Virus record (IMG/VR): IMGVR_UViG_3300028833_000093
Length of the DNA: 64,000 bases
DNA from: an uncultured virus (IMG/VR IMGVR_UViG_3300028833_000093)
Taxonomy: Duplodnaviria > Heunggongvirae > Uroviricota > Caudoviricetes
Strand: one strand, 5' to 3'
Shown piece by piece: positions 4,047-23,487 of this stretch (positions are counted from its first letter, which is position 1; each line of letters opens with the position of its first letter). The notes beneath the pieces are model-generated. The model was not told the origin of the DNA. It ran no database searches and was given only the letters and a program-made list of their open reading frames with translations. The position numbers and the translations under genes are program-made.

Positions 4047-4132
4047 TTGCTAATAGTTTATATTATTTTAGTATTTACGTTCATTACGCGTCAAGTATAC
4101 CGCCTTACGCGTCATTTTTATTATACCTCTTA

Positions 4133-4853: not shown

Positions 4854-7800
4854 TTATTCTTCTTCAATTATTGTCCATCCTTGTGGAATACCGTTTCCAC
4901 CATCCGGCCAATAAACATTTTTTCTTTTTACAAAGATACCTCCAGATGGAATATTATATGTCCACATTAATGTACTATTATCAATATCTATCCCATTCAC
5001 TGCTAAACATTTTATATATTTTAAGTTTGTACAATTTAAGAACATTTCATAATAACATTCGCTTACTAATGTTTGTGCAGGTAATACAGGAGCTTTAATT
5101 AAGTTTGTACAGCTCTCAAACATGCTAGCATAGCAATAGTATGCTAATTCAGTAGCAGGTAATTCAGTTGCAATTATTAAAGATGTACAACCATAAAACA
5201 TTCCCGCATAGCATTGATTTGATAATTGTGTAGCTGGTAATGCGGGTGGATATAATAAGCTTTTGCAATTTCTGAACATTCCGTTATAACAGCTTTCAGT
5301 CATTATTAGAGCTGGAAGCGCAGGAGGAATAACTAAACTATAACAATCTGTAAACATCCCGATATAACAACCTTCAGCTAATATAGTAGCAGGGAGTTCT
5401 GGAGCAATTATCAGACTAGAACATCCATTAAACATGTTATAATAACATTGTGGTGTTAGCGTTGTAGCAGGTAATTCTGGTGCTGAAGTTAAACCAGTAC
5501 AATTTTGGAACATAACACTATAACAGTTATCAGCTAATGCAGTCGCTGGCAGTTCAGGTGGGGCAATAAGAGCAGTACAGTTGTTAAATAATTCAGAAAA
5601 ACATCCATTATTTGGTATTGTTAAAGTATTACATGCTCCGTTATCTATCAATGACATTATATTTCCGGAAGCTTTTACTTTTCCTAATAATGTAAACCAC
5701 ACACGACGGTACCCACCAAAAAACCATCCACTAAGTCCTTCTGGATAATCTCCTTTTAGACACAATATTGTTCCTTTACTAAATGATATTGGACCTGTGT
5801 AATAATTCCAAGTTTCACCATCATCTAATGAATAGTAAAATTTATCTTCAAAACTCTCATCAGTACATGACCAATAAAATTCAGAATCTTCCACTGCTTC
5901 AAATTTAAGACCAGGATAATTCACTTGTTCAACTGTCCAACCTTCTGGAATACCATTTACTCCAGTCGGCCAATTCGCTTTGTAGTCTTTAATAAATGTA
6001 CCTGTTGCTGCTACTCCATCTACCCAATAATCTGTACTACTATTCGTATATATACCATTAACCGCAAGACATTTAATGTAATTTAAATTACTACAGCCTT
6101 GGAACATGTTAGTATAACACCAATCAACTAATGTTTTAGCAGGTAATACAGGTGCTGTTGTTAAACTACTACAGCCATAGAACATACCACTATAACAGCC
6201 ATTTGCTAATGTAGTCGCCGGTAATTCCGGTACTGTTGTTAAACTGCTACAACTATTGAACATACCCCAATAACAACCATCTGCTAATGTTTTAGCAGGT
6301 AATATTGATGGTGTTGTTGTCAAACTGCTACAATTTTTGAACATGTAATAATAACAATTATTTGCTAATGTAATAGCAGGTAATACAGGTGCTGTTGTTA
6401 GAGAACTGCATCCTAAAAACATTTGTGCATAACAACCATCTGATAATACAATAGCAGGTAATTCCGGTACTGTTGTTAAACTAGTACAGCCTTCAAACAT
6501 ACCATGATAACAACTATCTGCTAATGTAGTAGCAGGTAGTTCGGGAGCAATTATCAGACTAGAACATCCATTAAACATGTTATAATAACATTGGAGTGTT
6601 AGCGTTGTAGCAGGTAATAATTTTTCAGGGATTGAAGTTAAACCAGTACAACCATAAAACATACCATGATAACAATTTTGTGTTAAATATAATGCTGGTA
6701 ATAATTTTTCAGGGATTGAAGTTAAACCAGTACACCCCCAGAACATAGCACAATAACACCAATCTTTCAAACTATTAGAGGGTAATAAGTTTTCTGAAAT
6801 AGATTTAATTCCGGGGCAATCCATAAAACATCTGAAAAAACATCTATCATTAGGGATTGTTAAAGTATTACATGCCCCGTTATCTATCAATGACATTATA
6901 TTTCCTGATATCTCTATTTGTCCGGTTATATGAAAAAATGTATATTTATAAGCTGATAATGAAAATCCATTTGGGTTATCTCCTTTTAACAAAATTACAT
7001 CTCCTTGGTTTAATGATACTAAAGAAGTATGATAATCCCATTCGGTCCAACTTCCGCCATTGATAGCATACCATAAATCTGGAAAATTACTCCCTATATC
7101 ATATATTTCTATAACAGAGTTTTCTAGCGCAGTAAAAGTAAGACCCCTGTAATTATTTATAGTTGTCCACCCGGAAGGAATACCATTATTACCAGATGGC
7201 CATGATGCACTTGGAGATTTGATAAATTTTCCACTAGAAAAAACTCCTTGTACCCAATTAGTAGTGCTATAATGTTGGTTAATTCCTTGTGAGGCAAGAC
7301 ATTTTATATATTTTAACGATGAACATCCTTTGAACATCGCTTGATATACATTATATATCAATGTTCCGTTTCTATAATCTAAAACAGTTGATGGTAATTC
7401 GGGAGCTTTCACTAAACTGCTACAATTCTCGAACATCCCCATATAACATCCATCCGCTAAAGTTCTTGCTGGTAATTCAGGTGCTTCAACCAAACTGCTA
7501 CAACCCCGGAACATATATAGATAGCAGTTTTTTGCTATATCAACAGCTGGTAGTTTCGGAGCGACAGTTAATGAACTACATCCAGAAAACATACTTGTAT
7601 AACAGGCTTGGCTTATATTTTCTACGGATAATAGATCTTCTGGTACCGAAACTAAACCTTGACAATCTTGAAACATCCCACTGTAACTTCTTTCTCCTAG
7701 ATTAGTAGCAGGTAATAAATCATGAGGTAATGATGTTATACTATTACATCCACGAAACATATATTGATACCCGTTATATGGGGTTGTTAAAGCCGGCAAT

Positions 7801-9629
7801 TTTGGTAAATTCGTTATATTTGAGCAATTCTCAAACATTTGGTTATAACACCAATCTTTCAAATTAGTAGCAGGCAATAATTTTTCAGGAAGAGATGTTA
7901 ATCCAGTACATCCATAAAACATACTATTATAGCATCCCTCCGTTAAAGTTCTTGCTGGTAATAGTTTTTCTGGTAAAGATGTTAATCCAGTGCATTCATA
8001 AAACATTCTATAATAACAACCATTTTTTAGAACAGTTGCTGGAAGCAATGTATCAGATATAGATGTTATTCCAGAATGGCCCCCCTTAAAACAGTTTGCG
8101 AAACAATAACTGCATGGAATATCACTTTTATAGGCAACTAATGACATAATACTTCCCGAAACTTCGATAACTCCGGATACATTAAACTCGGTATAATTAT
8201 CGCTATAGTAGGATGAAAATCCATTTGGATTATTTCCTTTCACCCACATTACATCATCTTGGTAAAGGATCACTGAGTCATAATTATCTGACCAATGCAC
8301 CCAGTTTCCTCCATTGATAGCATACCACAAATCTGGGGTATTGTTGAAATTCGATATACCAATTGTACCTAATATACTAGTTGCGTCAATAACAGTAAAA
8401 GTAAGACCAGTGAATTCTTTTTGACTATCATCCCAGCCTGAAGGTATTCCATTCGTTCCCGTTGTCCAAGAAGAATCAGCATTACTTATAAATGTTCCAT
8501 TAGCAGATACACCTGATACCCAATAATATGTACTATTATTCGTATTTATACCATTCACGGCAAGACACTTAATGCGATTCAGATTAGTACATCCTCTAAA
8601 CATTTCAGAGTAACATGATGGTTTCAATTCTGTAGCAGGTAATTCTGGCACCGTAGTTAAACTTGTACAGCCTTCAAACATACTATTATAACAGCTTTCT
8701 GTTAATATTGTTGCTGGAAGTGAAGGAGCTGTTGTTAAACTACTACAATCATTGAACATACCAAAATAACATACTTCTGCTAATATTCTTGCTGGAAGTG
8801 AAGGAGCTGTTGTTAAACTACTACAACCAGAGAACATATGACTATAACAGCCTGTTTTTAATTCATTAGCATGTAACTCTGGTGCTGTTGTTAAACTTGT
8901 GCATACTCTAAACATATCAGCATAACAATGCTGTGCTAATTCAGTAGCGGGGAGCGATGGTGCTAAAGTTAAAGCGGTACATCCGTCAAACATTGCCGAA
9001 TAACATGCATAAGATAATATAGTTGCTGGTAATTCAGGTGCAGTTGTTAAACTTGTGCAAAAATAAAACATATATTGATAACAGTTACTACCTAATGTTG
9101 TTGCTGGTAATTCTGGACCGTGTATCAGATTGGTACAGCTAGAAAACATAGATTGATAACAAAAATCGCTTGCCGTTGTGCTTGGCAATAATAAATCACT
9201 TGCATCTGTTAATCCTGTACAGCCATTAAATAAATATCCCCCGCAATTACTTATTAATTGAGCTTCTAAATCTTTATAATTCCATAAAGCATTACAATTC
9301 CCACTTATAGAAACATCTCCAGTTATAGAAAATGTTGTATTATTCCATCCTGTTAAAATCCCAATCACATAAATTTCGTCATTGGCACTCATGTGGATTG
9401 ATGTACTGGTATCAAAAACATTCCAATCTTTTTGGTTGAAACTAAACCACAATTTTTGGTTATTGCTTAATTTAGATAATCCAATGGTTGAACTTTGATT
9501 TGCCTTAAACGTAACCCATTCTGTTGGCGGGTTATCAAGCAATGGAACTGTCCCTACAAATGCATTATTGGTAGTAAGTTCTTTACTACCATAATACGCT
9601 TTCTTAATATTTAATTTTCCTATCTTCAT
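4854..9629 (-). CDS. large LRR-like (BspA-like) repeat protein with four repeat modules; putative fibre/adhesin
   Basis: 26-aa repeat PELPATTLAxxCYxxMFxGCxSLTxA; each module ends YIKCLA...GIPxGW; N-terminal adaptor-like KIGKLNIKKAYYG. Confidence 0.85.
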   Translation of the reverse strand: MKIGKLNIKKAYYGSKELTTNNAFVGTVPLLDNPPTEWVTFKANQSSTIGLSKLSNNQKLWFSFNQKDWNVFDTSTSIHMSANDEIYVIGILTGWNNTTFSITGDVSISGNCNALWNYKDLEAQLISNCGGYLFNGCTGLTDASDLLLPSTTASDFCYQSMFSSCTNLIHGPELPATTLGSNCYQYMFYFCTSLTTAPELPATILSYACYSAMFDGCTALTLAPSLPATELAQHCYADMFRVCTSLTTAPELHANELKTGCYSHMFSGCSSLTTAPSLPARILAEVCYFGMFNDCSSLTTAPSLPATILTESCYNSMFEGCTSLTTVPELPATELKPSCYSEMFRGCTNLNRIKCLAVNGINTNNSTYYWVSGVSANGTFISNADSSWTTGTNGIPSGWDDSQKEFTGLTFTVIDATSILGTIGISNFNNTPDLWYAINGGNWVHWSDNYDSVILYQDDVMWVKGNNPNGFSSYYSDNYTEFNVSGVIEVSGSIMSLVAYKSDIPCSYCFANCFKGGHSGITSISDTLLPATVLKNGCYYRMFYECTGLTSLPEKLLPARTLTEGCYNSMFYGCTGLTSLPEKLLPATNLKDWCYNQMFENCSNITNLPKLPALTTPYNGYQYMFRGCNSITSLPHDLLPATNLGERSYSGMFQDCQGLVSVPEDLLSVENISQACYTSMFSGCSSLTVAPKLPAVDIAKNCYLYMFRGCSSLVEAPELPARTLADGCYMGMFENCSSLVKAPELPSTVLDYRNGTLIYNVYQAMFKGCSSLKYIKCLASQGINQHYSTTNWVQGVFSSGKFIKSPSASWPSGNNGIPSGWTTINNYRGLTFTALENSVIEIYDIGSNFPDLWYAINGGSWTEWDYHTSLVSLNQGDVILLKGDNPNGFSLSAYKYTFFHITGQIEISGNIMSLIDNGACNTLTIPNDRCFFRCFMDCPGIKSISENLLPSNSLKDWCYCAMFWGCTGLTSIPEKLLPALYLTQNCYHGMFYGCTGLTSIPEKLLPATTLTLQCYYNMFNGCSSLIIAPELPATTLADSCYHGMFEGCTSLTTVPELPAIVLSDGCYAQMFLGCSSLTTAPVLPAITLANNCYYYMFKNCSSLTTTPSILPAKTLADGCYWGMFNSCSSLTTVPELPATTLANGCYSGMFYGCSSLTTAPVLPAKTLVDWCYTNMFQGCSNLNYIKCLAVNGIYTNSSTDYWVDGVAATGTFIKDYKANWPTGVNGIPEGWTVEQVNYPGLKFEAVEDSEFYWSCTDESFEDKFYYSLDDGETWNYYTGPISFSKGTILCLKGDYPEGLSGWFFGGYRRVWFTLLGKVKASGNIMSLIDNGACNTLTIPNNGCFSELFNNCTALIAPPELPATALADNCYSVMFQNCTGLTSAPELPATTLTPQCYYNMFNGCSSLIIAPELPATILAEGCYIGMFTDCYSLVIPPALPALIMTESCYNGMFRNCKSLLYPPALPATQLSNQCYAGMFYGCTSLIIATELPATELAYYCYASMFESCTNLIKAPVLPAQTLVSECYYEMFLNCTNLKYIKCLAVNGIDIDNSTLMWTYNIPSGGIFVKRKNVYWPDGGNGIPQGWTIIEEE

Positions 9630-9632
9630 ACA

Positions 9633-10130
9633 TTAAATTGCATCTGTTATAATATACAATGTTGTTGGTTCAGGAGGATTTAATTGGTCATATTGAGCTT
9701 GTGTCAATTGAATGACTTTAGCGAATGCTGTTTGTACTGGAGTGACATTATCAGTTGTACTGCCATTATAACCCCCTACACCTAACATATACACCGCTCC
9801 TTCGTGCTCGTAACGGTTGCTATCACCATTATAAGTATATCCTTCGGCATTAATTTCCTGATTGCTGCCTATACTAATATTTTTTCCTGCTTTTAATGTA
9901 ACCCCCGGATCCTTAGCAGAAATCACATTACCCCGAATAGTGATATTCTTACCTGCTCTCAATTTATCTTGTTTTTTGTCTAATGCTCTTTGTAATGAGT
10001 CAATAGCAGGTTGAATAAGAGTCTCAATATTGTTCTTTATTGAAAGTGATGCGAACTGAATACGCGAATCCGCATACTCTTTAATATCTTTCCATTTCTT
10101 ATATATGTTATCAATCAATGTTAAACTCAT
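9633..10130 (-). CDS. fibre adaptor-like protein
   Basis: KQDKLRAGKNITI / LKAGKNISI repeats; C-terminal LTQAQYDQL...TLYII motif. Confidence 0.75.
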   Translation of the reverse strand: MSLTLIDNIYKKWKDIKEYADSRIQFASLSIKNNIETLIQPAIDSLQRALDKKQDKLRAGKNITIRGNVISAKDPGVTLKAGKNISIGSNQEINAEGYTYNGDSNRYEHEGAVYMLGVGGYNGSTTDNVTPVQTAFAKVIQLTQAQYDQLNPPEPTTLYIITDAI

Positions 10131-10142
10131 AGTATATATAGT

Positions 10143-10150
10143 TTATTATA
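10143..10150 (+). promoter_or_regulatory. candidate late promoter TTATTATA driving the antisense repeat RNA
   Basis: Matches the TTATTATW motif seen before structural genes; lies 4 nt before the first repeat. Confidence 0.5.
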
Positions 10151-10154
10151 TTCA

Positions 10155-10244
10155 TGTAAGCGTGTGGAAACTATGTTTCGCTTTTGTAACCGTTTGGAAA
10201 CTTTGTTTCGGCTTTGTAAGCGTTCGGAAACTATGTTTCGCAGT
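10155..10244 (+). repeat. 3 x 30-bp tandem repeat with internal palindrome
   Basis: TGTAAGCGTGTGGAAACTATGTTTCGCTTT / TGTAACCGTTTGGAAACTTTGTTTCGGCTT / TGTAAGCGTTCGGAAACTATGTTTCGCAGT. Confidence 0.95.
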
Positions 10245-10272
10245 GAGTGAGATTTTTCTTACTCACTTTTTT
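10155..10272 (+). ncRNA. putative structured small RNA: three bulged tri-loop hairpins plus terminator
   Basis: GCG...CGC changes to CCG...CGG in unit 2 (compensatory); followed by the GTGAGTGAGA...TCTTACTCAC hairpin and T6. Confidence 0.6.
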
Positions 10273-11026
10273 AATGTTTCAAAGAGAAGTGATAATATGC
10301 AGTTATTCTTTCACCACTACTCATAAAATATCTTCCATCAACTTGATATGGGCTTGTTAAACTACCGGATTTTTTATCAACCCCGCTTATTTGCCAAAGC
10401 ATATAATCAGATATCAGTTGTCCATCTCTTTTCACTGCTATACCTGCCCATCTATTGACAAAACTTGCATAGTTATTAGAAAAACTATCACCACACCATA
10501 CTTGATTACCAGTTCCTTCTGCGGTTCCTTTATTTTCATGAAAAAGAAAGCGCTGATATAAAAACTCATCTAACAACTCTTGCCATGTCACCTCATTTCC
10601 TTCTCGATTCTTGGGTAGTACTTCCCAGTAATCGTACAGTTCTGATGCAGCACTCTTCTCCTCTGCATAGACTTTGTACAGGTTTACATAGTTATATGGT
10701 TTAGGAATAATCCATCCACGTCTTTTCTTGACCAGTATTTTTACAGGTACTCCATGCTCATCAGTCTCACCTGTATAATGCCATGTAGGTGTAGCGGTAT
10801 TACGTGCGAACTGTAACTCATCAGTTTCAAGGATAGTACCTTTATAGCACTTGATATATAAATGAGCCTCGTCCGGTTCACCTTCTTCTTCAGTATAAAT
10901 CGTATCTACTTCAAGTTCACAAAACAACTGAGAACCTCCGCCACTCGGTTGAGAATGCTCATCTATATATTCTTTAATCAATCGGTCTCTGTAATCGAGT
11001 TGTTCTAAATCTACAATATTGTCCAT
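10271..11026 (-). CDS. hypothetical protein (paralog A): conserved N-terminal leader plus basic-patch domain
   Basis: N-terminus MDNIVDLEQLDYRDRLIKEYIDEHS nearly identical to that of 11152..11775; KKRRGW patch. Confidence 0.85.
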   Translation of the reverse strand: MDNIVDLEQLDYRDRLIKEYIDEHSQPSGGGSQLFCELEVDTIYTEEEGEPDEAHLYIKCYKGTILETDELQFARNTATPTWHYTGETDEHGVPVKILVKKRRGWIIPKPYNYVNLYKVYAEEKSAASELYDYWEVLPKNREGNEVTWQELLDEFLYQRFLFHENKGTAEGTGNQVWCGDSFSNNYASFVNRWAGIAVKRDGQLISDYMLWQISGVDKKSGSLTSPYQVDGRYFMSSGERITAYYHFSLKH

Positions 11027-11063
11027 TTTATATAATCTATTTTTGTATTTATTGTATATATAA

Positions 11064-11148
11064 GGGATTTAATCCCGGCTATGTGTGCCGATTTAATCGG
11101 ATACGCTATGCCAGCTCGTGGGTTGTTTAACACCTTCGAGCGTTTTTT
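11064..11148 (+). ncRNA. putative structured small RNA: three hairpins with UUA tri-loops, ending in a U-tract
   Basis: GGGAT-TTA-ATCCC; extended stem around CCGAT-TTA-ATCGG; GCTCG..GGTTGT-TTA-ACACC..CGAGC then GTTTTTT. G-U pairs favour the + strand; TTATTGTA at 11049. Confidence 0.6.
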
Positions 11149-11151
11149 ATT

Positions 11152-11775
11152 TTAATAGAGTTGTATTCTCCATTGTGATAAAGGTTCGCAATAGTCTGTT
11201 TGGAAACGAATATGTCCCGATACCGGTGTATCATTTTTTAGTACTATAATACCACCCCGTTTTTGTCGCATCATATCAGCAATTTCTACTCCTAGTATAT
11301 TATCGGCAAATCCTTGATTAATAAAGTCAAGCATATCATAATAATCACCTTCCCAATTACCTCCAATCTCATAATAATCATACCCATCTTTCGAAAAATT
11401 GGGTGTTGACTTATCTTTAAATCCAATTACGATAAGTGGTATTCTGTCTTTTGATGGTGCTTTCCATACCTGATGCAATCCTTTCCATTTATTCGCGCGC
11501 CCAGGTATCTCAGCACGTTTATTTCTCTGTCTGACTGTACCGCTACGCATATAAAGTAATGAATAATCGGTTATATCAGTACCTATAGGAAAACCAAGAT
11601 ATAAATGCTGTTCGTCCTGACCTGATGGCGAGACATCCTCGCGTTGTCGTGTTAAAACCATTCGTAAAGGCGAATAATCAGATGATCCGCCTCCTGAATG
11701 CGAATGCTCATCAATATATTCTTTTATGAGTTGGTCTCTATAATCGAGTTGTTCTAAATTTACTATATTTTCCAT
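11152..11775 (-). CDS. hypothetical protein (paralog B): conserved N-terminal leader plus basic-patch domain
   Basis: Start reassigned to MENIVNLEQLDYRD; shares DExHLY, LxY/FxR, YDYxE and RxxGIxV motifs with paralog A. Confidence 0.85.
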   Translation of the reverse strand: MENIVNLEQLDYRDQLIKEYIDEHSHSGGGSSDYSPLRMVLTRQREDVSPSGQDEQHLYLGFPIGTDITDYSLLYMRSGTVRQRNKRAEIPGRANKWKGLHQVWKAPSKDRIPLIVIGFKDKSTPNFSKDGYDYYEIGGNWEGDYYDMLDFINQGFADNILGVEIADMMRQKRGGIIVLKNDTPVSGHIRFQTDYCEPLSQWRIQLY

Positions 11776-11791
11776 ATTTTTATATTTGTAT

Positions 11792-14227
11792 TTATGCATT
11801 TTCTATTGTCCAACCAGAAGGTATACCATTCACTCCCGATGGCCATGATGCTGATGTGTCTTTCACAAACGTACCAGTACTTGCTATCTCCTTAACCCAA
11901 TTAGCTGTACTGTTATTCTGATTTATTCCATTAACAGCAAGACATTTGATGTAATTTAAACTTGTACACTTATAGAACATTTGTTGATAGCAACGATTTA
12001 CTAAGTTGATAGCATGAAGTATCGGAGCAGTAGTTAAGCTAATACAATTATAAAACATATAATTGTAACATGAAGATGCTAATGTAGTAGCGGGTAATTC
12101 ACGAACTGAAATTAAACCGGTACAATTCCAAAACATTTCACTATAACAATGATCTACTAATTCGGTTGCTGGTAGTTCAGGAGCTGAAGATAGACTAGTA
12201 CAGTCTTTAAACATGTCACTATAACAATATTTTGCTAATTCAGTAGCGGGCAGTTGAGGAGCAGTAACTAACGAGGAACATGCACTGAACATTCCACTAT
12301 AACAGCTATTTGCTAGTGTAGTAGCAGGGAGTGCAGGTGCTCCTGTAAGAGAGCTGCAACCAGCGAACATATAAGCATAGCAATAATCAGCTAATTCAGT
12401 AGCATGGAGTGCAGGTACTGTAGTCAAACTAGTACATCTGTAAAACATGTCACTATAACAATTTGTCGCTAGAACAGTAGCTGGTAGTTCTGGAGAATCC
12501 ATTAAATTATTACATGAACTAAAAAGACCAGTATAACCATAACAATATTCTGATAAGATGCTTGAGTATAATAATAGGTTTTGGGCATGCTGTAATTTTG
12601 TATAAACTCCTTCTTCGACAGCATTCCCAAATATTCCGCTAAATGCTGGTCTTATTATAGGTTCTCCTCCGGTATCTTCGTAAGATGGTTTTACAAACCA
12701 GCTAGATAAATCTTCTACTTTTCCTTCCGGACGAAGCAATGTGGTTATATCGCCAAACACATTCAATAGTGGTTCTTGTTCATAAACAAATCCTACCGTA
12801 TCTCGGTCACCATCAAAGTATTTATAAAATTGATTTCTATTATTTCCCCTAAAATAAATCTCAGAATGAATTTCTGACGGGGCTTCTGGCCAATATACTC
12901 CATCTTCTGAATGACTGTCTATAAGAGTTATCCAATTTATTTTATCATAAGAATATTCTATATTATAGCTATCTCCATCTACCTGGGTTGTTTGTTTTTC
13001 AACTCCTACAATGATGCTATAATCTGGGTTTTCTCCTACGAAAGAAAACCCAAGATATTTAATCTCATCATAATTATCAATCTCCCAATTGTATGGTATA
13101 CCACTAGGACCAGTACTGTAATCTACTGCTACTGGTTTAGAAAAAGTTCCTTCCTCAGCTACCCCTTGAAGCCAATTAGTAGTACAATTATCCGCTGATA
13201 TATCTACTGCACAACATTTGATGTAATTAAGATTCTCACAGCCTTGGAACATTTCACGATAACAACTAGGAGATAATATAGTTGCTATTAGCTCTGGAGC
13301 TGAGGTTAAACTACTACAACCAGCGAACATTTGAGCATAACAACTACTTGCCAATATTGTTGCTGGTAATTCGGGTGCTTCTGTAAGAGAGTTGCAGAAT
13401 ATAAACATTTCATAATAACACCAATGTGCTAATTTAGTTGCAGAAAGTTTTGGTGCCTTTGTAAGAGATCTGCACGAACTGAACATATTGCTGTAACAAT
13501 GATCTGATAACTGTTTCGCAGGCAATTCAACTGGTCCATCTATCAAATTATAACACTCTTCAAACATCCTGCTATAGCATGAAGGGGTTGTGTTAGATGG
13601 GAAAACCAACGCGGTTGCATCAGATATAGGAGTATAAGAGAATAATAATTCAAAGTTTGCTGTAAGAGGAAGAGTATCAGTGTGTCCTATTATATCAATT
13701 AGAGATGTTAGTTTCCCTGATAACAAAATGTCTTTATTGTCCCAGGAATCATTATCAAAGTCAAACCATCCGTGTTCATGAATATCTCCACTTGGATGAT
13801 ATCCAACTATTTTCAATTCATTCCCCGGTTGGATGGTATAAAACTCATTCAATTCTAGAGGGACTAACTCATCGTCATCAATGTAAAAGAAATGTGATTG
13901 AACTTCACTATCTTCACGGGATCTAAATTTGACTTTACAGTCTATAGATCCATGATTCGTGAAGGTTAAAGCATTCTGTTTAATCTCCTCTATGTCGTAG
14001 AAGATCTTTATAAAATGCAAATAATTATCTTCGCTTGATACCGGTTCTAATCCTTCTGCACCAGTGACAGGTACTAACTCATCAAACTTTACATCACCAT
14101 CCCATAACATCTTGATAATCTCATTCGGTACAGTCTCGTAGATTTCACCCGGTTTATATGTTTGTTCTTTATTATTTACCCAATCTCGAACGGCATCCAA
14201 TATATTTTTTATGGTTCCTTCTTTCAT
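11792..14227 (-). CDS. LRR-like repeat protein with two modules; putative fibre/adhesin
   Basis: Same 26-aa repeat and YIKC...GIPxxW caps. Confidence 0.85.
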   Translation of the reverse strand: MKEGTIKNILDAVRDWVNNKEQTYKPGEIYETVPNEIIKMLWDGDVKFDELVPVTGAEGLEPVSSEDNYLHFIKIFYDIEEIKQNALTFTNHGSIDCKVKFRSREDSEVQSHFFYIDDDELVPLELNEFYTIQPGNELKIVGYHPSGDIHEHGWFDFDNDSWDNKDILLSGKLTSLIDIIGHTDTLPLTANFELLFSYTPISDATALVFPSNTTPSCYSRMFEECYNLIDGPVELPAKQLSDHCYSNMFSSCRSLTKAPKLSATKLAHWCYYEMFIFCNSLTEAPELPATILASSCYAQMFAGCSSLTSAPELIATILSPSCYREMFQGCENLNYIKCCAVDISADNCTTNWLQGVAEEGTFSKPVAVDYSTGPSGIPYNWEIDNYDEIKYLGFSFVGENPDYSIIVGVEKQTTQVDGDSYNIEYSYDKINWITLIDSHSEDGVYWPEAPSEIHSEIYFRGNNRNQFYKYFDGDRDTVGFVYEQEPLLNVFGDITTLLRPEGKVEDLSSWFVKPSYEDTGGEPIIRPAFSGIFGNAVEEGVYTKLQHAQNLLLYSSILSEYCYGYTGLFSSCNNLMDSPELPATVLATNCYSDMFYRCTSLTTVPALHATELADYCYAYMFAGCSSLTGAPALPATTLANSCYSGMFSACSSLVTAPQLPATELAKYCYSDMFKDCTSLSSAPELPATELVDHCYSEMFWNCTGLISVRELPATTLASSCYNYMFYNCISLTTAPILHAINLVNRCYQQMFYKCTSLNYIKCLAVNGINQNNSTANWVKEIASTGTFVKDTSASWPSGVNGIPSGWTIENA

Positions 14228-14245
14228 AATATATTATTCTTTCTT

Positions 14246-14611
14246 TTATTCGTTATCAAATTCGCTCAATTCTTCATAGGCTTCTTCGTAAGAGACATAT
14301 TCAATATCTCCTCCACTGCCAATTTTCTTAATAGTACCGTCTCCTTGAATGACATATGCATCATAAATACCGGTTTCTTCATCATCTTCGCCAGTAGTCC
14401 CTGTTTTTACTCCGATAATTTGTCCCGCATAGGATTGTAAGTATAGATTACGTTCATCCGGAGTCCTCGCGCTGCCTTTCGCATAATTCTCCGCATCTTC
14501 GACACTTAAGAACAAAGCTGTGATGTCTAAAGGAAATGCATTGTTTCGTTTTGTTGCACCCGGTAATAGTACAGACGGTTTGAATGTATATTCGTCGTAT
14601 TCTTTTGCCAT
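14246..14611 (-). CDS. virion-associated adaptor-like protein; paralog of the N-terminus of 18567..20822
   Basis: About 95 shared residues, MAKxYxxYxFxPSVLLPG...YAGQIIGVK...IQGDGTxKKxG; late motif at 14639-14646. Confidence 0.8.
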   Translation of the reverse strand: MAKEYDEYTFKPSVLLPGATKRNNAFPLDITALFLSVEDAENYAKGSARTPDERNLYLQSYAGQIIGVKTGTTGEDDEETGIYDAYVIQGDGTIKKIGSGGDIEYVSYEEAYEELSEFDNE

Positions 14612-14873
14612 TGTTCAAAATAAATAATTACTTAATACAATAATAATCTGCTGACATGAAAAATGACACAAAAACATTGTGTCATTTTCTTGATTTTTAT
14701 CGTTTATATTAAAGAACCTTAATGATGTAGTTCAATGTAAAATATGGAATGTCAAAAAAGAACCTCATGGTTCTCTTTTTCTTAGGTTATATCGTAGTTC
14801 CAGATAGGATCTATTTGCTTGAATTTATACCCTTTACTGATATATAAGTTCTTAGTCTCTTCACTTAACAAAT

Positions 14874-14950
14874 CTATATTTCTAGCATATCTGCATCGAG
14901 TACATTCCATCCTAATGGTATACCACTTGATCCAGCGTTAGTATCATCAT
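14874..14950 (-). pseudogene. remnant of an LRR-module C-terminal cap
   Basis: Start-less frame translating as AGSSGIPLGWNVLD, matching the GIPxGW cap, inside a 400-bp intergenic gap. Confidence 0.4.
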
Positions 14951-14981
14951 ATTCAATAATAAGATAAAGAATATGATAAAT

Positions 14982-15010
14982 AAAGAGAGGAACTATTGAT
15001 CCTCTCTTTT
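14982..15010. terminator. intrinsic terminator
   Basis: AAAGAGAGGA-ACTATTGA-TCCTCTCTTT directly after the stop of 15010..15840. Confidence 0.7.
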
Positions 15011-15840
15011 TATGATTGTAGTGGTACGATTGTCCAGTTCGTTGGTATGCCTGATTCTCCTGATGACCATATAGATGAGTCTGGAGTCAAGAACGTACCT
15101 GTAGGAGATACTCCGCGTAGCCAATAAGTGGTAGAATTATTTACTCCTATTCCAGTGGAGGCAAGACATTTGATGTGATTGAGAGGGGTACAATTTTCAA
15201 ACATTCTATTGTAACATGCTGTGACTAATGAGTTTGCATTCAGATCAGGAGCATTTGTCAAAGATGAGCACCCCTCGAACATTGCTGCATAACAACCAAC
15301 GGCCAATGTTGTTGCAGGTAGTTCAGGCGCTGTTATTAGAGAACTACAACCTGAGAACATACTACCATAACAACTATATACAAGATTCATAGCTGGTAAT
15401 TCTGGTGCTGTTATTAGAGAACTACAACCTTCGAACATGTGATCTCCACAAAGTTCTTTTAACGGAGCATTTGGATTACTATAATTCCATAGATAATTGC
15501 AGTTACCAGATGCTGCGATTAAACCGGTCATTGTGAATCGGGTGTAATCAGTGGTAGTATTATTACCACTCAATACACCTCTAATATATACTTCATCATC
15601 TTGATCTAGATTAACAGTTACAGTAGTATCAAAAGTAGACCAATTGATTTTGTCTTGCGAATATTCTAAACTCTGATGAGAACTCAGTCTATTCAATCCA
15701 ATAGAACTACTATTTTGTAAAGCCTTAAATGTTACCCAAGGTTCAACAGGCCATACTTGTATATTACCCAAGTATGCTTTAGACACTTGAGTAGAACCAA
15801 GAAATATATTCGTTATACCGATATTTCCAATGTTTATCAT
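15010..15840 (-). CDS. LRR-like repeat protein, one module, with adaptor-binding N-terminus
   Basis: MINIGNIGITNIFLGSTQVSKAYLGNIQVWP followed by a repeat module. Confidence 0.85.
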   Translation of the reverse strand: MINIGNIGITNIFLGSTQVSKAYLGNIQVWPVEPWVTFKALQNSSSIGLNRLSSHQSLEYSQDKINWSTFDTTVTVNLDQDDEVYIRGVLSGNNTTTDYTRFTMTGLIAASGNCNYLWNYSNPNAPLKELCGDHMFEGCSSLITAPELPAMNLVYSCYGSMFSGCSSLITAPELPATTLAVGCYAAMFEGCSSLTNAPDLNANSLVTACYNRMFENCTPLNHIKCLASTGIGVNNSTTYWLRGVSPTGTFLTPDSSIWSSGESGIPTNWTIVPLQS

Positions 15841-16004
15841 TTAATGATATATAATATATTATCTGATTTTGTTGTTATTGCATCATACTCTGCCTGAGTT
15901 CCAGACCAGATAGTTTTAATAGTTTCAGATTCGACTTTTATTGCTACTTTATCATTCACCCAACGGCGAATACCGACAAGCATATTTTGTAAATTTCTAT
16001 TCAT
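15837..16004 (-). CDS. 55-aa fibre adaptor peptide (not in the ORF track)
   Basis: MNRNLQNMLVGIRRWVNDKVAIKVESETIKTIWSGTQAEYDAITTKSDNILYIIK; ATGA overlap with the next gene. Confidence 0.85.
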   Translation of the reverse strand: MNRNLQNMLVGIRRWVNDKVAIKVESETIKTIWSGTQAEYDAITTKSDNILYIIK

Positions 16005-16027
16005 AGTAAATTATTTTTTCATATTTT

Positions 16028-18370
16028 TTAAGTAGTTGGTATTGCTTGAATTCTTGAAGCATATGTTGACCAACCGGTTGTTGCTTTATATGTTTCTACA
16101 GATTCAGTTGGAACATATAGTGGACAGTTATTCGTATTGCTAAACATATAGCTTGCAACTCCACCAATCGTTGGTGGTGTTGTGCAATATAATGTAATAT
16201 AAGTTAATCCTGAGCAATCTTTGAATGCAGCATGATCTATAATCGTTACATTAGCAGGAATAATCACATGTGATAATGTGGTACATCCTTCAAATGTTTG
16301 TATATCTATTTTACTAACATCTGTACCTATTTCAACATATTCTAATGTTGAAAGATAAGGAGAAACACGTTCTGATTTTAATGTATTATATACATCTGCT
16401 TCTATCTCCACATCTGGATTACCATTATTCAAATGAAGTATTGTATGTGAAGGTGTTTCTGGAGAATTCAATATCTCAATTGTCTCTGCAGTAGTTATCA
16501 CAAAATCTGTTATATCAGCAATAACATGAGTGTGTGCAAAATCAGTAATCTCTGATTTAGTATGTGTGTGTCCAACATTGGATTTTCCATCTAATGCATT
16601 TTGTAATGCAATATCATCATAATGATTTACTACTGTCCAACCGGTCGGAATTCCTTCATAATAACTACTAGATGTACTCCAGTTTGTCATGTTTGCATCT
16701 TTTACAAATGTACCAGATGCTGCTACATTTTGTACCCAATATAATGTACAATATGTTGCAGATATATCAGTAGCAAGACATTTAATATAATTTAATGAAG
16801 TACAGCCCTTAAACATTTGATAGTAACACCGTTGTGCTAATGTTTTTGCTGGAAGTTCTGGAGCAGTAGTTAATGCAGTACAACCAAAAAACATACTACT
16901 ATAACATCCATATTCCAATGTAGTTGCAGGTAATATCGGGGTTTTTGTTAAAGCAATACAACCTTCAAACATACTATTATAACAATAAGTTGATAGTGTT
17001 TTTGCTGGAAGTTCTGGAGCAGTAGTTAATGCAGTACAACCTCGGAACATATTAGCATAGCATCTTTGTGCCAATATTGTTGCAGGTAATTCTGGTGCTG
17101 AAGTTAAACCGGTACATACATAGAACATACCTTCATAACAACTTTCTTTCATTATTGTTGCTGGTAACGCCGGTGCGGCAGTTAAACTGGTACATCCATT
17201 AAACATAGCACCATAACAACTCTTCGCTAATGTAGTTGCAGGAAGTTCGGGAGCAGCAGTTAAAGATGAACAGTTATGAAATGCTCGAATAAAACAATAA
17301 CTACATGGTATTGTATCAACTTCTTCTGTATAGTCAATGAGAGACATGATGTTTCCTGATGCAGCAATTATACCAGTAATCACAAATTCACTAAACATAC
17401 TATCCGACTTAGAAAAACCATTTGGATTCATACCCCTCATCAAAACGGTGTCATCAATATTGTTAAGTGTAATAGTCGAATAATCCCATATAGTCCATGT
17501 GCCCCCATTATTTGTACTAATTTCTATATTAGGAGCATTATCTCCAGTGTTAGTAATAGAAATTGTACTACCTGCTTGTTGAGCTGTAAAACAAAGTGGA
17601 GTAGGATAAATTTTATCTACTTTTTTATCAAGCAATGAATCAGTCTCAGTTTTTGTATAGTATTGAGACAAGTCAATACGTGTAGAACCAATTTTTTCCC
17701 ATTGACTGTTTACCCAAATATATTCGTCTTTAATGTCTTGAGAAGGATGTTGACGATATTCAAAAAATGCAGGGAATTCATCCACATCAATATAATCTTC
17801 TGTTGGTTCGGTTTGTTCGAATGTATAGATCTGTCCGATTATATCTCCGCCAACGCTTTCCGGAAGATCGTATATTCCATTTACCTGATAGAATGCATTT
17901 TGTTCATAGTCCTCTGTTGTAACTCCAAATAACTCTCCATCCAATTCAAGTTCTTCAAGATTGACTGCAGTAGCAAAAGTAAATTCTTCATCACTCTCTG
18001 GATCTGGATTTTCTCTAGTACATTTTATTACATCTCCGATAGAAAGTTTTGAACTGGGCTGAGGATTTGTCATATGTTGAGGATATGTCCCATCTGCATA
18101 AAGAATAGACATGTGTTCAATGCTTTCATCTAGTGCAGGTACTAAATAGATAGTGTTCTTTTTACCTCGTGATGGTAATTCATCTACTACCTGAATAGAA
18201 AAACCGAAGCGATTTACTAGCTCTACTATCTTTTGTGATGAGTATGTAGTATATAAACTCACATTCTCATCATCAATCACATCGGTCATTGCTTCTTTTA
18301 ACAGATTGAGCTTTTTCGCTAAGACTTTCGGAAAAGCAAGATCCACCTTATTGAAATCTATATCTATCAT
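16028..18370 (-). CDS. mosaic fibre protein with an LRR-like module, HTH-tripeptide fibre repeats and a C-terminal BspA-type LRR
   Basis: TTYSSQKI, VVDELP...TIYLV, EYIWVNSQWEKIG, HTHTKSEITDFAHTH, AFKDCSGLT...LYVPTESVETYK. Confidence 0.85.
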   Translation of the reverse strand: MIDIDFNKVDLAFPKVLAKKLNLLKEAMTDVIDDENVSLYTTYSSQKIVELVNRFGFSIQVVDELPSRGKKNTIYLVPALDESIEHMSILYADGTYPQHMTNPQPSSKLSIGDVIKCTRENPDPESDEEFTFATAVNLEELELDGELFGVTTEDYEQNAFYQVNGIYDLPESVGGDIIGQIYTFEQTEPTEDYIDVDEFPAFFEYRQHPSQDIKDEYIWVNSQWEKIGSTRIDLSQYYTKTETDSLLDKKVDKIYPTPLCFTAQQAGSTISITNTGDNAPNIEISTNNGGTWTIWDYSTITLNNIDDTVLMRGMNPNGFSKSDSMFSEFVITGIIAASGNIMSLIDYTEEVDTIPCSYCFIRAFHNCSSLTAAPELPATTLAKSCYGAMFNGCTSLTAAPALPATIMKESCYEGMFYVCTGLTSAPELPATILAQRCYANMFRGCTALTTAPELPAKTLSTYCYNSMFEGCIALTKTPILPATTLEYGCYSSMFFGCTALTTAPELPAKTLAQRCYYQMFKGCTSLNYIKCLATDISATYCTLYWVQNVAASGTFVKDANMTNWSTSSSYYEGIPTGWTVVNHYDDIALQNALDGKSNVGHTHTKSEITDFAHTHVIADITDFVITTAETIEILNSPETPSHTILHLNNGNPDVEIEADVYNTLKSERVSPYLSTLEYVEIGTDVSKIDIQTFEGCTTLSHVIIPANVTIIDHAAFKDCSGLTYITLYCTTPPTIGGVASYMFSNTNNCPLYVPTESVETYKATTGWSTYASRIQAIPTT

Positions 18371-18399
18371 TGTATATATGTGTGTATTTATGAATTTTC

Positions 18400-18542
18400 A
18401 AAAAAGCGTGACGGAGCTACCTGAATATCGAATTTTAACCCTTAGCACAGGGGGTTGGGCTGAAATAGTATTTAGTTATAACCACGAGATTATCGGGGTA
18501 ACCAAGGGCCGTAACATTATATATGCGCAACAACCCCGCCAC
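18400..18542 (-). ncRNA. putative ~140-nt structured RNA with long nested stems, downstream of gene 18567..20822
   Basis: On the minus strand CGTGGCGGGGTTGTT pairs with GGTAGCTCCGTCACG (15 bp, several G-U), AATGTT with GATATT, and GGCCCTTGGT with GCTAAGGGTT; ends in T6; GC-rich island in AT-rich DNA. Confidence 0.6.
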
Positions 18543-18556
18543 GTTTGTATCGTTAT

Positions 18557-18590
18557 TTTATTACTTTTACCAATTTATTACTTTTACCAA
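18557..18590. repeat. 17-bp perfect tandem duplication at the gene end
   Basis: TTTATTACTTTTACCAA x2. Confidence 0.9.
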
Positions 18591-20822
18591 TTTGTTAGTT
18601 AATACATATTCATCAGTAATTCCATTATTGGTCATTCTTGCATTAGCGAATATCTTATATGGTAATACTTCTGTACGTATTAAGTGTTCTGTGTCGTTGA
18701 TTTTGGTGTTTTTACAATATACTAAATTCATACCAATTATTGCACTTATGTTTTGCGTATATGCAGTTTGACCAGTAATCATCGGATCATACAATCCATA
18801 TAAAAGAAATTCTCTTTTCTTATCTCCAATGGTTAAACGGGTATACTTAATATTATTTTGTCTTGCTAAATTAGTTCTCGTACCATATTTCAATACCTCA
18901 TGTAATGTAATTGGGTCTTGTCCTGATATGGGTTTTATTCTAAAAAATCCATCCATCAAGTTTTTTACAGTAATCGGCATGATATAGGTACATCCATTTA
19001 ATGTTCTATCACAATATCTATTTGCAGCATCACTTGCATCGGAATATGAAGTATAAGGTGTTTCGTTATTCAGATATTCTAAACTATATTTTTGTTTATT
19101 GAAACTTTGTCCAGAATTATTGGTTATATTGTGATGTATTGCTCTCCATTTATTTGATGAACCGTGACTTCTACTGGTATATGAACGTTTTGCATAAAAC
19201 ACAATAGATAAGTATGGTTCATTTAATCGAACAAATTCCATATTATCACAATGTACACGAATACAAATCATTTTATCTCTTATACCATAGCTTTGATTTA
19301 TATCGTTATCCATTTGTTCACTATAAGAAGGAACTGTCTTTACTTCAAATGTAATATCGGTTTTCTTGAAAGTGGGTTTCCATTCTCTCCAGCTTTGTCC
19401 ATATATTTTCGTTCTTACATAATCTACATCTGAATTATACAAATGCTGAGTTGTTTTATTTCCTTCTTTTTTGATGGAGACATTGAATATAGTACAAATT
19501 CGTGATTCTTTATTGATAACTGGTAATGTATACTCCGCAGAAAGCACCAATGAATTCAGTACAGGTTCAACAGCACTTAATAATGGTATATATGCACCAC
19601 AATATAATGTAGTATTTGATGTATTGTTGTAATAAGTTATTCCATGAGTTGTGTTACAAAATACTTCCGGTAATCGTTTAGGCATATTCTGAGACAGCTC
19701 ATCTTCAGACAATAATACCATCACTCCTTCATTACCATCCCAAGTATATACATTTCCGTCATAGTCATTGATATAGAATATATTTTCTTGGAACTTATCT
19801 GTTTCATTGTATTCTTTATATACATTGTTTCCGGGTATTATATCTCCATCTAAATCGTCTAAGAAAAGTCTATAAACAGTATCTGGCTCTTGTGGGAAAT
19901 AGATTACTCGATTGTAAATTGGTGATGTTATCTGTACCCATTCACCACTATCATCTTCATAATCATATGTCCATTTATAAATAAGATATATATCATCACT
20001 ACTATATGCAATAAGAATTTTTCCTACCTCTCTTTGTGTAAGCTCTGGAAAACTTCCACTCTCGGGAGTATAATAATCAGCTCTCAAGAAGTGGACAGAA
20101 TTCGTTACAATACTACCATCGCCGTTATTTGTAGTGAATATCTCTTGTACAGGATCCCAATAATATAGTTCTGAAGTATTCGTAGACAAGTAGATTTTTT
20201 CAGTACTTGGCTCTCCTTGTTCCCATTGACCAGTAGTAGGATCTTGCTCGTCTTTCACATATACCCAAATCTCAGTCTTGTCTTGAGTAATAAATGGAAG
20301 TGATTTTGAAGCTAACAACCATTGATTTTCATACTCTGGTTCTTCTCCAGGCTCTGCAATATTCACTTTAGTGAGCACATAGAGTAATTGGTTTTCATTA
20401 TCATACCAGTAATCACCCAACATATAATCCTCTTCTTGGGGTTGCGTACTACTTACTATATTAGGTATTACTACATTGACTATACTGCTTTCAATTACTG
20501 CTTCCCCATCACTTGAGTTATCTAAAGTACCGAGTTTTTTGAGAGTTCCATCTCCTTGTATGATATATGCGTCATATAATCCTGTTTCATTATCTCCATT
20601 ACCTACAGTGCCTGCTTTGACACCAATAATCTGTCCCGCATATGCTTGAAGACCTAAGTATCGTTCATCTAAATCAGAGATGTCTCCTTTTGCATATTTG
20701 ATTGCATCATTTACAGATAGAAATAATGCACTCATATCTAAAGGCCATGCACCATTTCTCTTTAATGTCCCGGGTAATAAGACAGAAGGATTGAAATCAT
20801 ATGAATTATAATCTTTTGCCAT
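18567..20822 (-). CDS. multi-domain virion protein (paralog C): acidic N-terminal part, basic C-terminal domain
   Basis: N-terminus shared with 14246..14611; C-terminal SIVFYAKRS...NKWRAIHH resembles LLYMRS...NKWKGLH of paralog B. Confidence 0.85.
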   Translation of the reverse strand: MAKDYNSYDFNPSVLLPGTLKRNGAWPLDMSALFLSVNDAIKYAKGDISDLDERYLGLQAYAGQIIGVKAGTVGNGDNETGLYDAYIIQGDGTLKKLGTLDNSSDGEAVIESSIVNVVIPNIVSSTQPQEEDYMLGDYWYDNENQLLYVLTKVNIAEPGEEPEYENQWLLASKSLPFITQDKTEIWVYVKDEQDPTTGQWEQGEPSTEKIYLSTNTSELYYWDPVQEIFTTNNGDGSIVTNSVHFLRADYYTPESGSFPELTQREVGKILIAYSSDDIYLIYKWTYDYEDDSGEWVQITSPIYNRVIYFPQEPDTVYRLFLDDLDGDIIPGNNVYKEYNETDKFQENIFYINDYDGNVYTWDGNEGVMVLLSEDELSQNMPKRLPEVFCNTTHGITYYNNTSNTTLYCGAYIPLLSAVEPVLNSLVLSAEYTLPVINKESRICTIFNVSIKKEGNKTTQHLYNSDVDYVRTKIYGQSWREWKPTFKKTDITFEVKTVPSYSEQMDNDINQSYGIRDKMICIRVHCDNMEFVRLNEPYLSIVFYAKRSYTSRSHGSSNKWRAIHHNITNNSGQSFNKQKYSLEYLNNETPYTSYSDASDAANRYCDRTLNGCTYIMPITVKNLMDGFFRIKPISGQDPITLHEVLKYGTRTNLARQNNIKYTRLTIGDKKREFLLYGLYDPMITGQTAYTQNISAIIGMNLVYCKNTKINDTEHLIRTEVLPYKIFANARMTNNGITDEYVLTNKLVKVINW

Positions 20823-20845
20823 AAATAGTCATTTTTTATTCATTA

Positions 20846-23029: not shown

Positions 23030-23136
23030 AAAATCTCTATATTTTTACTTATTCTAATAATAAAATAAATAGCTGTTCATTTACATAAAAATTGGGTAAT
23101 CATATTGACTACCCAGTTCCAATGTAATTTTGTTTG

Positions 23137-23304
23137 TTAAGCTAACTTTATTGCGTCTTGTGGACAGTTATCTAAACAGGTTCGACATTCTGTACACACA
23201 TCTGGATCAATTTGATAGATTTCTCCTTCAGTGATTGCTCCCATCGGACAGTTCTCAGCACATGTTCCACAAGCGACACAGTCTTTAGTAATTTTATATG
23301 CCAT
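23137..23304 (-). CDS. 2[4Fe-4S] ferredoxin, 55 aa (not in the ORF track)
   Basis: MAYKITKDCVACGTCAENCPMGAITEGEIYQIDPDVCTECRTCLDNCPQDAIKLA: two CxxCxxCxxxCP motifs. Confidence 0.95.
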   Translation of the reverse strand: MAYKITKDCVACGTCAENCPMGAITEGEIYQIDPDVCTECRTCLDNCPQDAIKLA

Positions 23305-23320
23305 ATCTATTCATTGTTTT

Positions 23321-23461
23321 TTATACTCTTCCTTGTCCACGATAAGCTTTCTTGTAGTTTTTAGATGATTTCAAACGAGATGTTTTCTTTTTTGAATGTA
23401 CACCAGGTCTTTTGATTGTCGGATGATCTACATAGCTTACACTTGCGATTGCCTTTGCCAT
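23321..23461 (-). CDS. 46-aa very basic protein ending YRGQGR (not in the ORF track)
   Basis: MAKAIASVSYVDHPTIKRPGVHSKKKTSRLKSSKNYKKAYRGQGRV; resembles small YRGQG proteins of T4-like phages. Confidence 0.8.
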   Translation of the reverse strand: MAKAIASVSYVDHPTIKRPGVHSKKKTSRLKSSKNYKKAYRGQGRV

Positions 23462-23487
23462 ATTATATCATTGTTTTTTTGTAATTA

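Follow-up and report, generated by a model that had tools for sequence, protein, structure and literature searches.

What does the short gap behind a gene of a phage tail region encode, when a threefold repeat fills it between a promoter-like motif and the stop codon of the converging gene? The locus lies in a window of 64,000 nucleotides from an uncultured virus (GC content 34.7%), to which all positions refer. The window belongs to a large tailed phage; PHROG matches identify a tail tube, head closure, and a collagen-like tail fibre, and profile searches find encoded BspA-type LRR proteins. A jumbo genome is likely for this phage, judging from the 473-kb contig that carries a relative, 48% identical, of the protein encoded at 10271..11026. 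Two sheep-gut metagenome runs contain this DNA and may be where it comes from. This gene and its neighbour at 11152..11799, both of one family, lie among the tail genes. Elsewhere, a minus-strand gene cluster (4854-23029) encodes 26-aa BspA-like leucine-rich repeats (78-nt DNA period) with fibre-like N-termini, which are probably arrayed, exchangeable adhesins. By eye, the gap in the ORF map at 23030-23487 appears to contain short genes on the minus strand; one has a CxxCxxC pattern of the ferredoxin type, and another resembles ribosomal protein S21.

The first cassette (10142-10272, plus strand) begins with a late-promoter-like motif, WTTATTAT(A), at 10142..10150 (TTATTATA at 10143-10150), which points into the repeats and has no plus-strand gene downstream. 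A preliminary description of this DNA had taken TTATTATA for a candidate late promoter, and this agrees with the position of the motif 33-42 nt before many genes of the phage, where it would act as a promoter. The three tandem 30-mers reported there are real and start at 10155: TRF found a period of 30 over 10155-10241 (2.9 copies, 84% matches, score 132), and GGAAACNNNGTTTCG occurs three times in the window, all within this array, with 0.21 expected and three copies reached in 1/100 shuffles. Unit 1 (10155..10184) carries the tip hairpin GAAAC-TAT-GTTTC at 10167-10179, unit 2 (10185..10214) at 10197-10209, and unit 3 (10215..10241) at 10227-10239, the last with a tip pairing probability of 0.67. 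The earlier notation counted the C of GTTTC twice; with a tip of 5 bp the outer stem has 2 bp, and with a tip of 4 bp it has 3. The array is followed by an intrinsic terminator (10242..10272), as also described before, with an 11-bp hairpin (10242-10267) containing one plus-strand G-U pair and a T6 run (10267-10272) reaching into the stop codon of 10271..11026, the converging gene. A 73-aa plus-strand ORF spanning the repeats (10105..10326) overlaps both neighbouring genes and was judged a chance frame.

The preliminary description had read a compensatory base change in unit 2 as a sign of selection on pairing. The double change, from G10160:C10181 to C10190:G10211, is present in the sequence. 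However, it affects a single base pair, whose predicted pairing probability is 0.01-0.025 in each of the three units, and the free-RNA minimum joins unit 1 with unit 2 (-33.0 kcal/mol, against -22.2 to -17.6 kcal/mol for imposed three-hairpin forms). Single units fold at -2.6 to -3.7 kcal/mol with z-scores of -0.94 to 0.02, and the repeat array alone has a z-score of 0.19, so that the change is weak evidence for selection and the z-score of -3.28 for the whole element is the contribution of the terminator. The window cassette is also an exception to the covariation described below, as its own arms were better in 0/3 units. The homologous cassettes, and not the window's own copy, show selection on pairing. 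By its sequence, the element is a gene for a putative RNA of ~115 nt; the 33-42-nt spacing would place the transcript start near 10152-10156, at the first repeat. The contigs of two RNA and two DNA runs (4 of the 14 listed) do not span 10122-10382 and are silent on expression.

A second cassette (11048..11148, plus strand) lies behind the paralog gene 11152..11799. It starts with the motif TTTATTGT (11048-11055), continues with two hairpins with GATTTAATC tips (11066-11074 and 11090-11098), and ends in a third hairpin that is also the terminator (11114-11141), followed by T6 (11143-11148). Its folding z-score is -4.28, with 0/200 shuffles as good, and the test for a 9-mer in three copies was marginal (2/20 shuffles). 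The motif itself is overrepresented: 18 intergenic WTTATTAT copies occur in the window, against 5.6 ± 2.4 expected (0/500 shuffles), and 13 of them precede a same-strand ATG by 33-42 nt, from which WTTATTAT is the probable late promoter of this phage. The late motif of T4 is TATAAATA, which WTTATTAT does not resemble. Copies stand before starts in the structural region, for example at 14647(-), 23064(-), 25524(-), 25584(+), 28434(+), 30320(+), 40784(-), 40802(+), 51888(+), 60102(-), and 61413(+). Two other intergenic copies, at 4117(+) and 45301(-), point away from nearby genes of their own strand and might serve further antisense RNAs; an inverted repeat also lies within 4047-4132.

The cognate gene (10271..11026, minus strand) encodes a 251-aa protein with an N-terminal helix, a Gly linker, and an Ig-like β-sandwich bearing a basic β-hairpin (R75-G104). 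The paralog (11152..11799, minus strand; 207 aa from the second ATG) is 49% identical over the first 79 aa and alignable over the full length. The family domain of ~190 aa, an Ig-like sandwich with the basic hairpin, occurs alone, preceded by a short helix and a Gly linker, or at the C-terminus of fibre-like proteins. Word-index searches found 22 and 20 relatives, and a profile search of 1.84 billion representatives found 54 at E up to 0.001; the relatives P0001-P0015 are 70-89% identical. Residues R75, G104, P108, and G195 are conserved at ≥90% in 65 sequences. The R75-G104 segment, a long strand pair in the predicted model, is net positive in 64/65 proteins (mean +5.0), whereas the rest of the protein is net positive in only 6/65 (mean -6.5).

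Two AlphaFold2 models (pLDDT 81.3 and 87.4) are β-rich, and their nearest solved folds are weak Ig-like matches (best Z 5.2, rmsd 3.9, 89 aligned; Z 4.9, rmsd 3.5, 103 aligned). Foldseek against PDB and BFVD gave no match at E 0.001 or better, a PDB sequence search reached E 0.24 at best, and the ESM Atlas returned leads at 0.80-0.81 or nothing. A three-copy prediction of the 251-aa protein (65-row alignment) scored 0.13 and 0.10 against a mark of 0.42, in a case that lies outside the calibration of the tool. The family has no name in Pfam (45 members), PHROG, NCBIfam, or PADLOC (65 members); in PADLOC, the 65 members gave three single weak matches to other families (E 0.005-0.009). In addition, tblastn with five family members found no match in GenBank phages, and in IMG/VR there was no close protein relative of the window protein or of the members A1, A2, and A6, and one of A7.

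Long fibre-like proteins that end in the domain include P0056 (1684 aa), P0080, P0085, P0043, L017, L031, L032, and L033. A PHROG search of 15 fusion proteins and neighbours gave matches in 6 and none in 9: L032 matched a minor tail protein PHROG (8e-05) and neighbours at L013 and L024 matched tail fibre families, while P0069, P0080, P0083, P0085, P0059, P0061, L017, and L033 were among those without a PHROG match. The domain is thus found C-terminally on fibre-like proteins in tail gene clusters, with weak profile matches for the shafts. In P0069, the domain is fused behind a region that by eye resembles an N-terminal-nucleophile hydrolase.

We found the family in metagenome-assembled genomes titled Paludibacteraceae or Bacteroidales, in phage-like gene contexts: in 21/267 genomes of the genus, 12/401 of the family sample, and 1/401 of the order sample. 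In the order-level genome samples, either profile occurred only in the centre genome. At one metagenome locus, L001 (51% identical), three opposite-strand stem-loops stand directly behind the stop codon; they share their loop, and each has a different, paired stem. T7 follows the third stem-loop, and the next gene is again a paralog. Two candidate loci were rejected as false matches, namely L006 (E 3e-4 over 33 residues) and L022 (a 64-aa fragment without a cassette).

For the promoter count we used 30 rows, leaving out L002-L005 and L007 as duplicates of L008-L012, as well as L006 and 23 repeat loci without a gene. The pattern was TT[TG]G-N17-23-TAnnTTTG, in which we take TTTG as the -33 site. 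In 26/27 prophage-type rows the opposite strand has it no more than 190 nt from the stop codon, the miss being L022, and it stands behind only 1/111 other ORF ends of the same loci. The 26 positive rows represent 22 distinct RNAs, because five rows share one RNA. The -7 consensus of the Bacteroidetes promoter is given as TANNTTTGY in the accessible text of PMC12632263. The large-phage-type rows (both window copies and L001) are without a Bacteroidetes promoter and have TTTATT-type motifs in its place.

The cassettes are 77-128 nt long, and each lies downstream of and convergent with the protein gene in all 25 distinct cases. A U-tract ends 23/25 of them and overlaps the stop codon in 16/25. 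The predicted RNA stops at that codon and leaves the coding sequence uncovered; a same-strand ORF follows beyond the cassette in 23/25 loci. In most loci hairpin 3 also serves as terminator; a separate terminator is present in the window cassette and in L019-L021. Every paralog comes with a cassette and a tip of its own, as seen in the window, at two loci in G705, and at three in G980.

In an unbiased search, a thrice-repeated 9-mer beats all 20 shuffles in 18/25 cassettes. The test was marginal or failed in WIN2 (2/20), L020 and L021 (1), L032 (3), and L015, L018, and L025 (11-18), and marginal values carry little meaning because the non-member L022 scored 1/20. The chosen cores each occur three times and are mostly of the form GA...TC. 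Core matches in five loci number 17, of which 14 are at cassette positions, with at most one elsewhere per locus. The homologous cassettes repeat only the tip; they have no whole-unit tandem repeat, and their stems are unlike yet paired.

The arms were compared in 19/25 cassettes with a core chosen by eye, the other six having no shared core that we could see. A unit's own arms beat those of its sister units in 49/57 units (mean -7.5 vs -3.0 kcal/mol; 15, 16, and 18 of 19 for units 1, 2, and 3). The counts from all these loci are neither independent nor to be read as probabilities, because the loci are related and most come from one bacterial genus. In the GATnCyATC group (23 units, 8 loci), the two positions under the tip are paired in 21/23 units, where 13.9 and 10.3 were expected, and show 5 and 6 types of pair; deeper positions are paired in 12-17/23, and two of these did not exceed shuffles. 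In 20/25 cassettes the promoter strand folds more stably than its complement, and in 4 less stably; it has 87 G-U pairs against 24, terminators included. Tips are shared within protein clades, as expected from linkage alone, and differ strongly between lineages and paralogs. These loci strongly support the earlier proposal that the element is a self-contained RNA gene on the opposite strand and that its three hairpins are equivalent.

The cassettes of L018 and L033 are longer, at 127-128 nt; they contain four or five hairpins, and their threefold repeat is less clear, possibly a variant architecture. L025 has the same flanking genes as L008 and L010 and a different family member with different tips, one of them GATTTAATC as in the second cassette of the window; here gene and RNA appear to have been swapped together. 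In three prophages, a set resembling a diversity-generating retroelement by eye (target, accessory gene, template repeat, and reverse transcriptase) lies two genes downstream of the cassette (L002:5210-8569, L003:5215-8572, and L004:5189-8355), where L005 and L007 have other genes. The repeat pattern of the window had no match in IMG/VR. A scan of IMG/VR for three GATAGHATC cores gave 24 loci, 23 of which are plain tandem repeats without the gene; the remaining one, L048, is a true cassette adjoining a homolog.

By comparison of the loci, the protein family is linked to an opposite-strand putative promoter, usually three predicted constant-tip hairpins with paired stems, and a U-tract: a real, conserved, and apparently undescribed gene-RNA module in phages of rumen bacteria. 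Its setting suggests that the RNA helps to build, caps, or forms part of the fibre tip. Tail fibres are usually homotrimers, often with a chaperone gene directly behind the fibre gene, and for this reason we favour an RNA that gathers or masks the protein within the cell. At a probability of about 0.45, we propose that each of the three hairpins of a small RNA binds one subunit of a trimeric fibre-tip domain, and that the RNA acts as an assembly scaffold or a removable cap. The RNA would be made from the opposite-strand promoter, of the host housekeeping type in prophages and a late-type motif in the large phage, and the conserved basic β-hairpin of the cognate protein would bind each hairpin tip. 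Should the protein form the tip of a tail fibre with three subunits, the hairpins of one RNA molecule could engage all three. Acting inside the cell, the RNA would gather and register the three monomers and keep their basic, sticky surface masked up to the release of the virion. The homotrimeric fibre partner proposed in the preliminary description gains from the fusion of the adjacent gene's family to fibre-like C-termini and from the conserved basic hairpin, while the trimer itself is something we infer. More widely framed, a ribonucleoprotein tail-fibre tip in which one RNA clamps three subunits, as the first RNA chaperone of a fibre or as a permanent host-recognition part, on a cassette exchanged between prophages and a large lytic phage, is in our judgement an even bet.

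Some observations weigh against the scaffold or cap. The window's units fail the arm-swap comparison and the three-hairpin form is not its free-energy minimum, the test for a 9-mer in three copies was failed or only just passed by 7 of the 25 distinct cassettes, and the fibre annotation of the fusion partners consists of weak profile matches and context. Furthermore, a housekeeping promoter would make the RNA in lysogeny, when there is no fibre, which fits an antisense RNA or a decoy at least as well. A cis-antisense RNA would be complementary to the intergenic part of a late-operon mRNA, given the same-strand ORF beyond nearly all cassettes, and would silence or cleave the read-through transcript, or its promoter would interfere with read-through, perhaps with the protein involved; the housekeeping promoter would act in the lysogen. 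However, a perfectly complementary RNA would not require lineage-specific tips in three copies or stems that co-vary, the cassette goes with a single protein family rather than with the other operon genes (1/111), and the RNA would halt at the stop codon before any coding sequence; we regard this account as rather improbable. Antisense action in trans on other phage mRNAs was rejected, as the longest complementary match elsewhere in the 64-kb window is one 12-mer; the five places with complementary 10-mers or longer lie inside genes. As for a decoy, the RNA might neutralise a harmful protein that binds or cleaves nucleic acids, or soak up the protein of a superinfecting relative. The one-to-one pairing of gene and RNA, the repeats, the basic protein surface, and the constitutive prophage promoter suit this idea, but no toxin or defence family was found among the 45-65 members, and the fusion to fibre-like shafts and the location among tail genes point elsewhere. 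The convergent downstream layout also differs from the antitoxin-terminator-toxin operon described in the accessible part of PMC5086642, and we give an antitoxin or sponge little credence.

The linkage, the threefold repeat, and the fibre fusions would equally fit an RNA that remains with the finished virion, where it would give a ribonucleoprotein fibre tip its structure or recognise the host and where variable tips would diversify receptor contact. The late-type motif in the large phage, the strong differences between the tips of lineages and paralogs, and the presence of the family in unrelated phage types, with its prophage members concentrated in one host lineage, agree with such a part. 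An exposed RNA would nevertheless have to survive rumen nucleases, tips bound to protein would not be free for receptor binding, and nothing positively separates this from an intracellular role; a lasting place on the virion seems unlikely to us. A DNA operator array, or a neutral tandem repeat beside an ordinary terminator, is suggested by the window copy, in which a genuine tandem repeat has cores that are palindromic and outer stems that are weak, and by the DNA-binding Ig-like domains among the weak fold neighbours (NF-kB p65, Z 4.7, rmsd 3.5, 93 aligned). It is very improbable and already largely refuted by the homologous cassettes, in which only the tip is repeated and differing stems still pair, a promoter and a U-tract bracket the cassette on one strand, G-U pairs are biased (87 vs 24), and cores are not dispersed (14/17 matches at cassette positions).

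Tail fibres decide the host range of a phage, and to our knowledge their tips and the factors that assemble them are considered to consist of protein alone. A dedicated RNA that offers each subunit one hairpin would make a new kind of ribonucleoprotein in phages, either a part of the virion or a chaperone or cap. The family supplies ~25 natural protein-RNA pairs with different tips, so that a binding code could be tested in vitro without culturing the phage, and such pairs could give orthogonal RNA-protein tags. Even an antisense RNA or a decoy would represent an undescribed and tightly conserved gene-RNA module.

Among known systems, type III toxin-antitoxin loci (ToxIN, CptIN, TenpIN, and AbiQ) share with the cassettes a protein gene, a short repeated RNA, and a terminator. 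In these loci, according to the accessible part of PMC5086642, the repeats precede the toxin gene in the same operon and are separated from it by a terminator, the units are pseudoknotted, and triangular 3:3 complexes are known for ToxIN. In contrast, the putative RNA described here follows the gene in convergent orientation in all 25 distinct cassettes and has a putative promoter to itself, its units are predicted to be plain hairpins (in folding without pseudoknot models) with unlike stems in most loci, and the family protein has no toxin profile and ends fibre-like proteins. The sequence families ToxN, CptN, TenpN, and AbiQ were absent among 45 members searched in Pfam and 65 in PADLOC and NCBIfam. 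No type III toxin fold appeared among the matches listed in two fold searches, where the neighbours were weak Ig-like folds and a toxin of an unlisted family could still be represented. Layout and sequence families thus speak against a type III system and against the antitoxin mimic raised in the preliminary description; an antitoxin-like working keeps the small probability given above. Rfam 15 gave no gathering-level match in the window and no relevant match at E up to 10 in 9900-11400 or at E up to 1 in 20 loci, so that the antitoxin RNA families named in that description found no counterpart here or in the homologous loci.

STAXI and pan RNA motifs have two- or threefold repeated modules proposed to bind multimeric proteins, as stated in the accessible text of PMC2864571. 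STAXI is a pseudoknot near DNA-manipulation genes and pan a 5' UTR element according to the same text, while the cassettes have no Rfam match. The accessible parts of PMC2864571 and PMC5737381 contain nothing resembling the cassettes. At the level of titles and abstracts, in a search that covered subscription literature thinly, we found no published RNA tied to tail fibres or acting as a fibre chaperone.

CRISPR arrays consist of identical direct repeats separated by unique spacers. The window units are head-to-tail without a spacer, no CRISPR repeat family was found in Rfam, and the homologous cassettes have no whole-unit repeats; a CRISPR mini-array and a solitary repeat RNA were accordingly rejected. 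TIGR-Tas systems have an adjacent Nop-domain protein, and they were set aside, as no Nop Pfam match was found in 45 members and the protein models are β-rich. In protein-sponge small RNAs of the CsrB/RsmY type, a short transcript bears a number of equivalent hairpins and has a promoter and a terminator to itself, much as proposed for the cassettes, but the cassettes have a fixed number of three, locus-specific tips, and a tie to one adjacent phage gene instead of a global regulator. Tail-fibre assembly chaperones behind fibre genes include lambda Tfa and T4 gp38, besides intramolecular chaperones. The cassette likewise stands directly behind the fibre or tip gene, one per fibre gene, and we propose for it trimer assembly and masking; the known chaperones are proteins, whereas the cassette is an RNA gene. 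In the case of phi29, several pRNA molecules form a ring on the packaging motor. As proposed here, both would be small phage RNAs that partner a virion assembly protein in matching symmetry, but the cassette RNA would be one molecule with three sites, and its partner is a tail-region protein.
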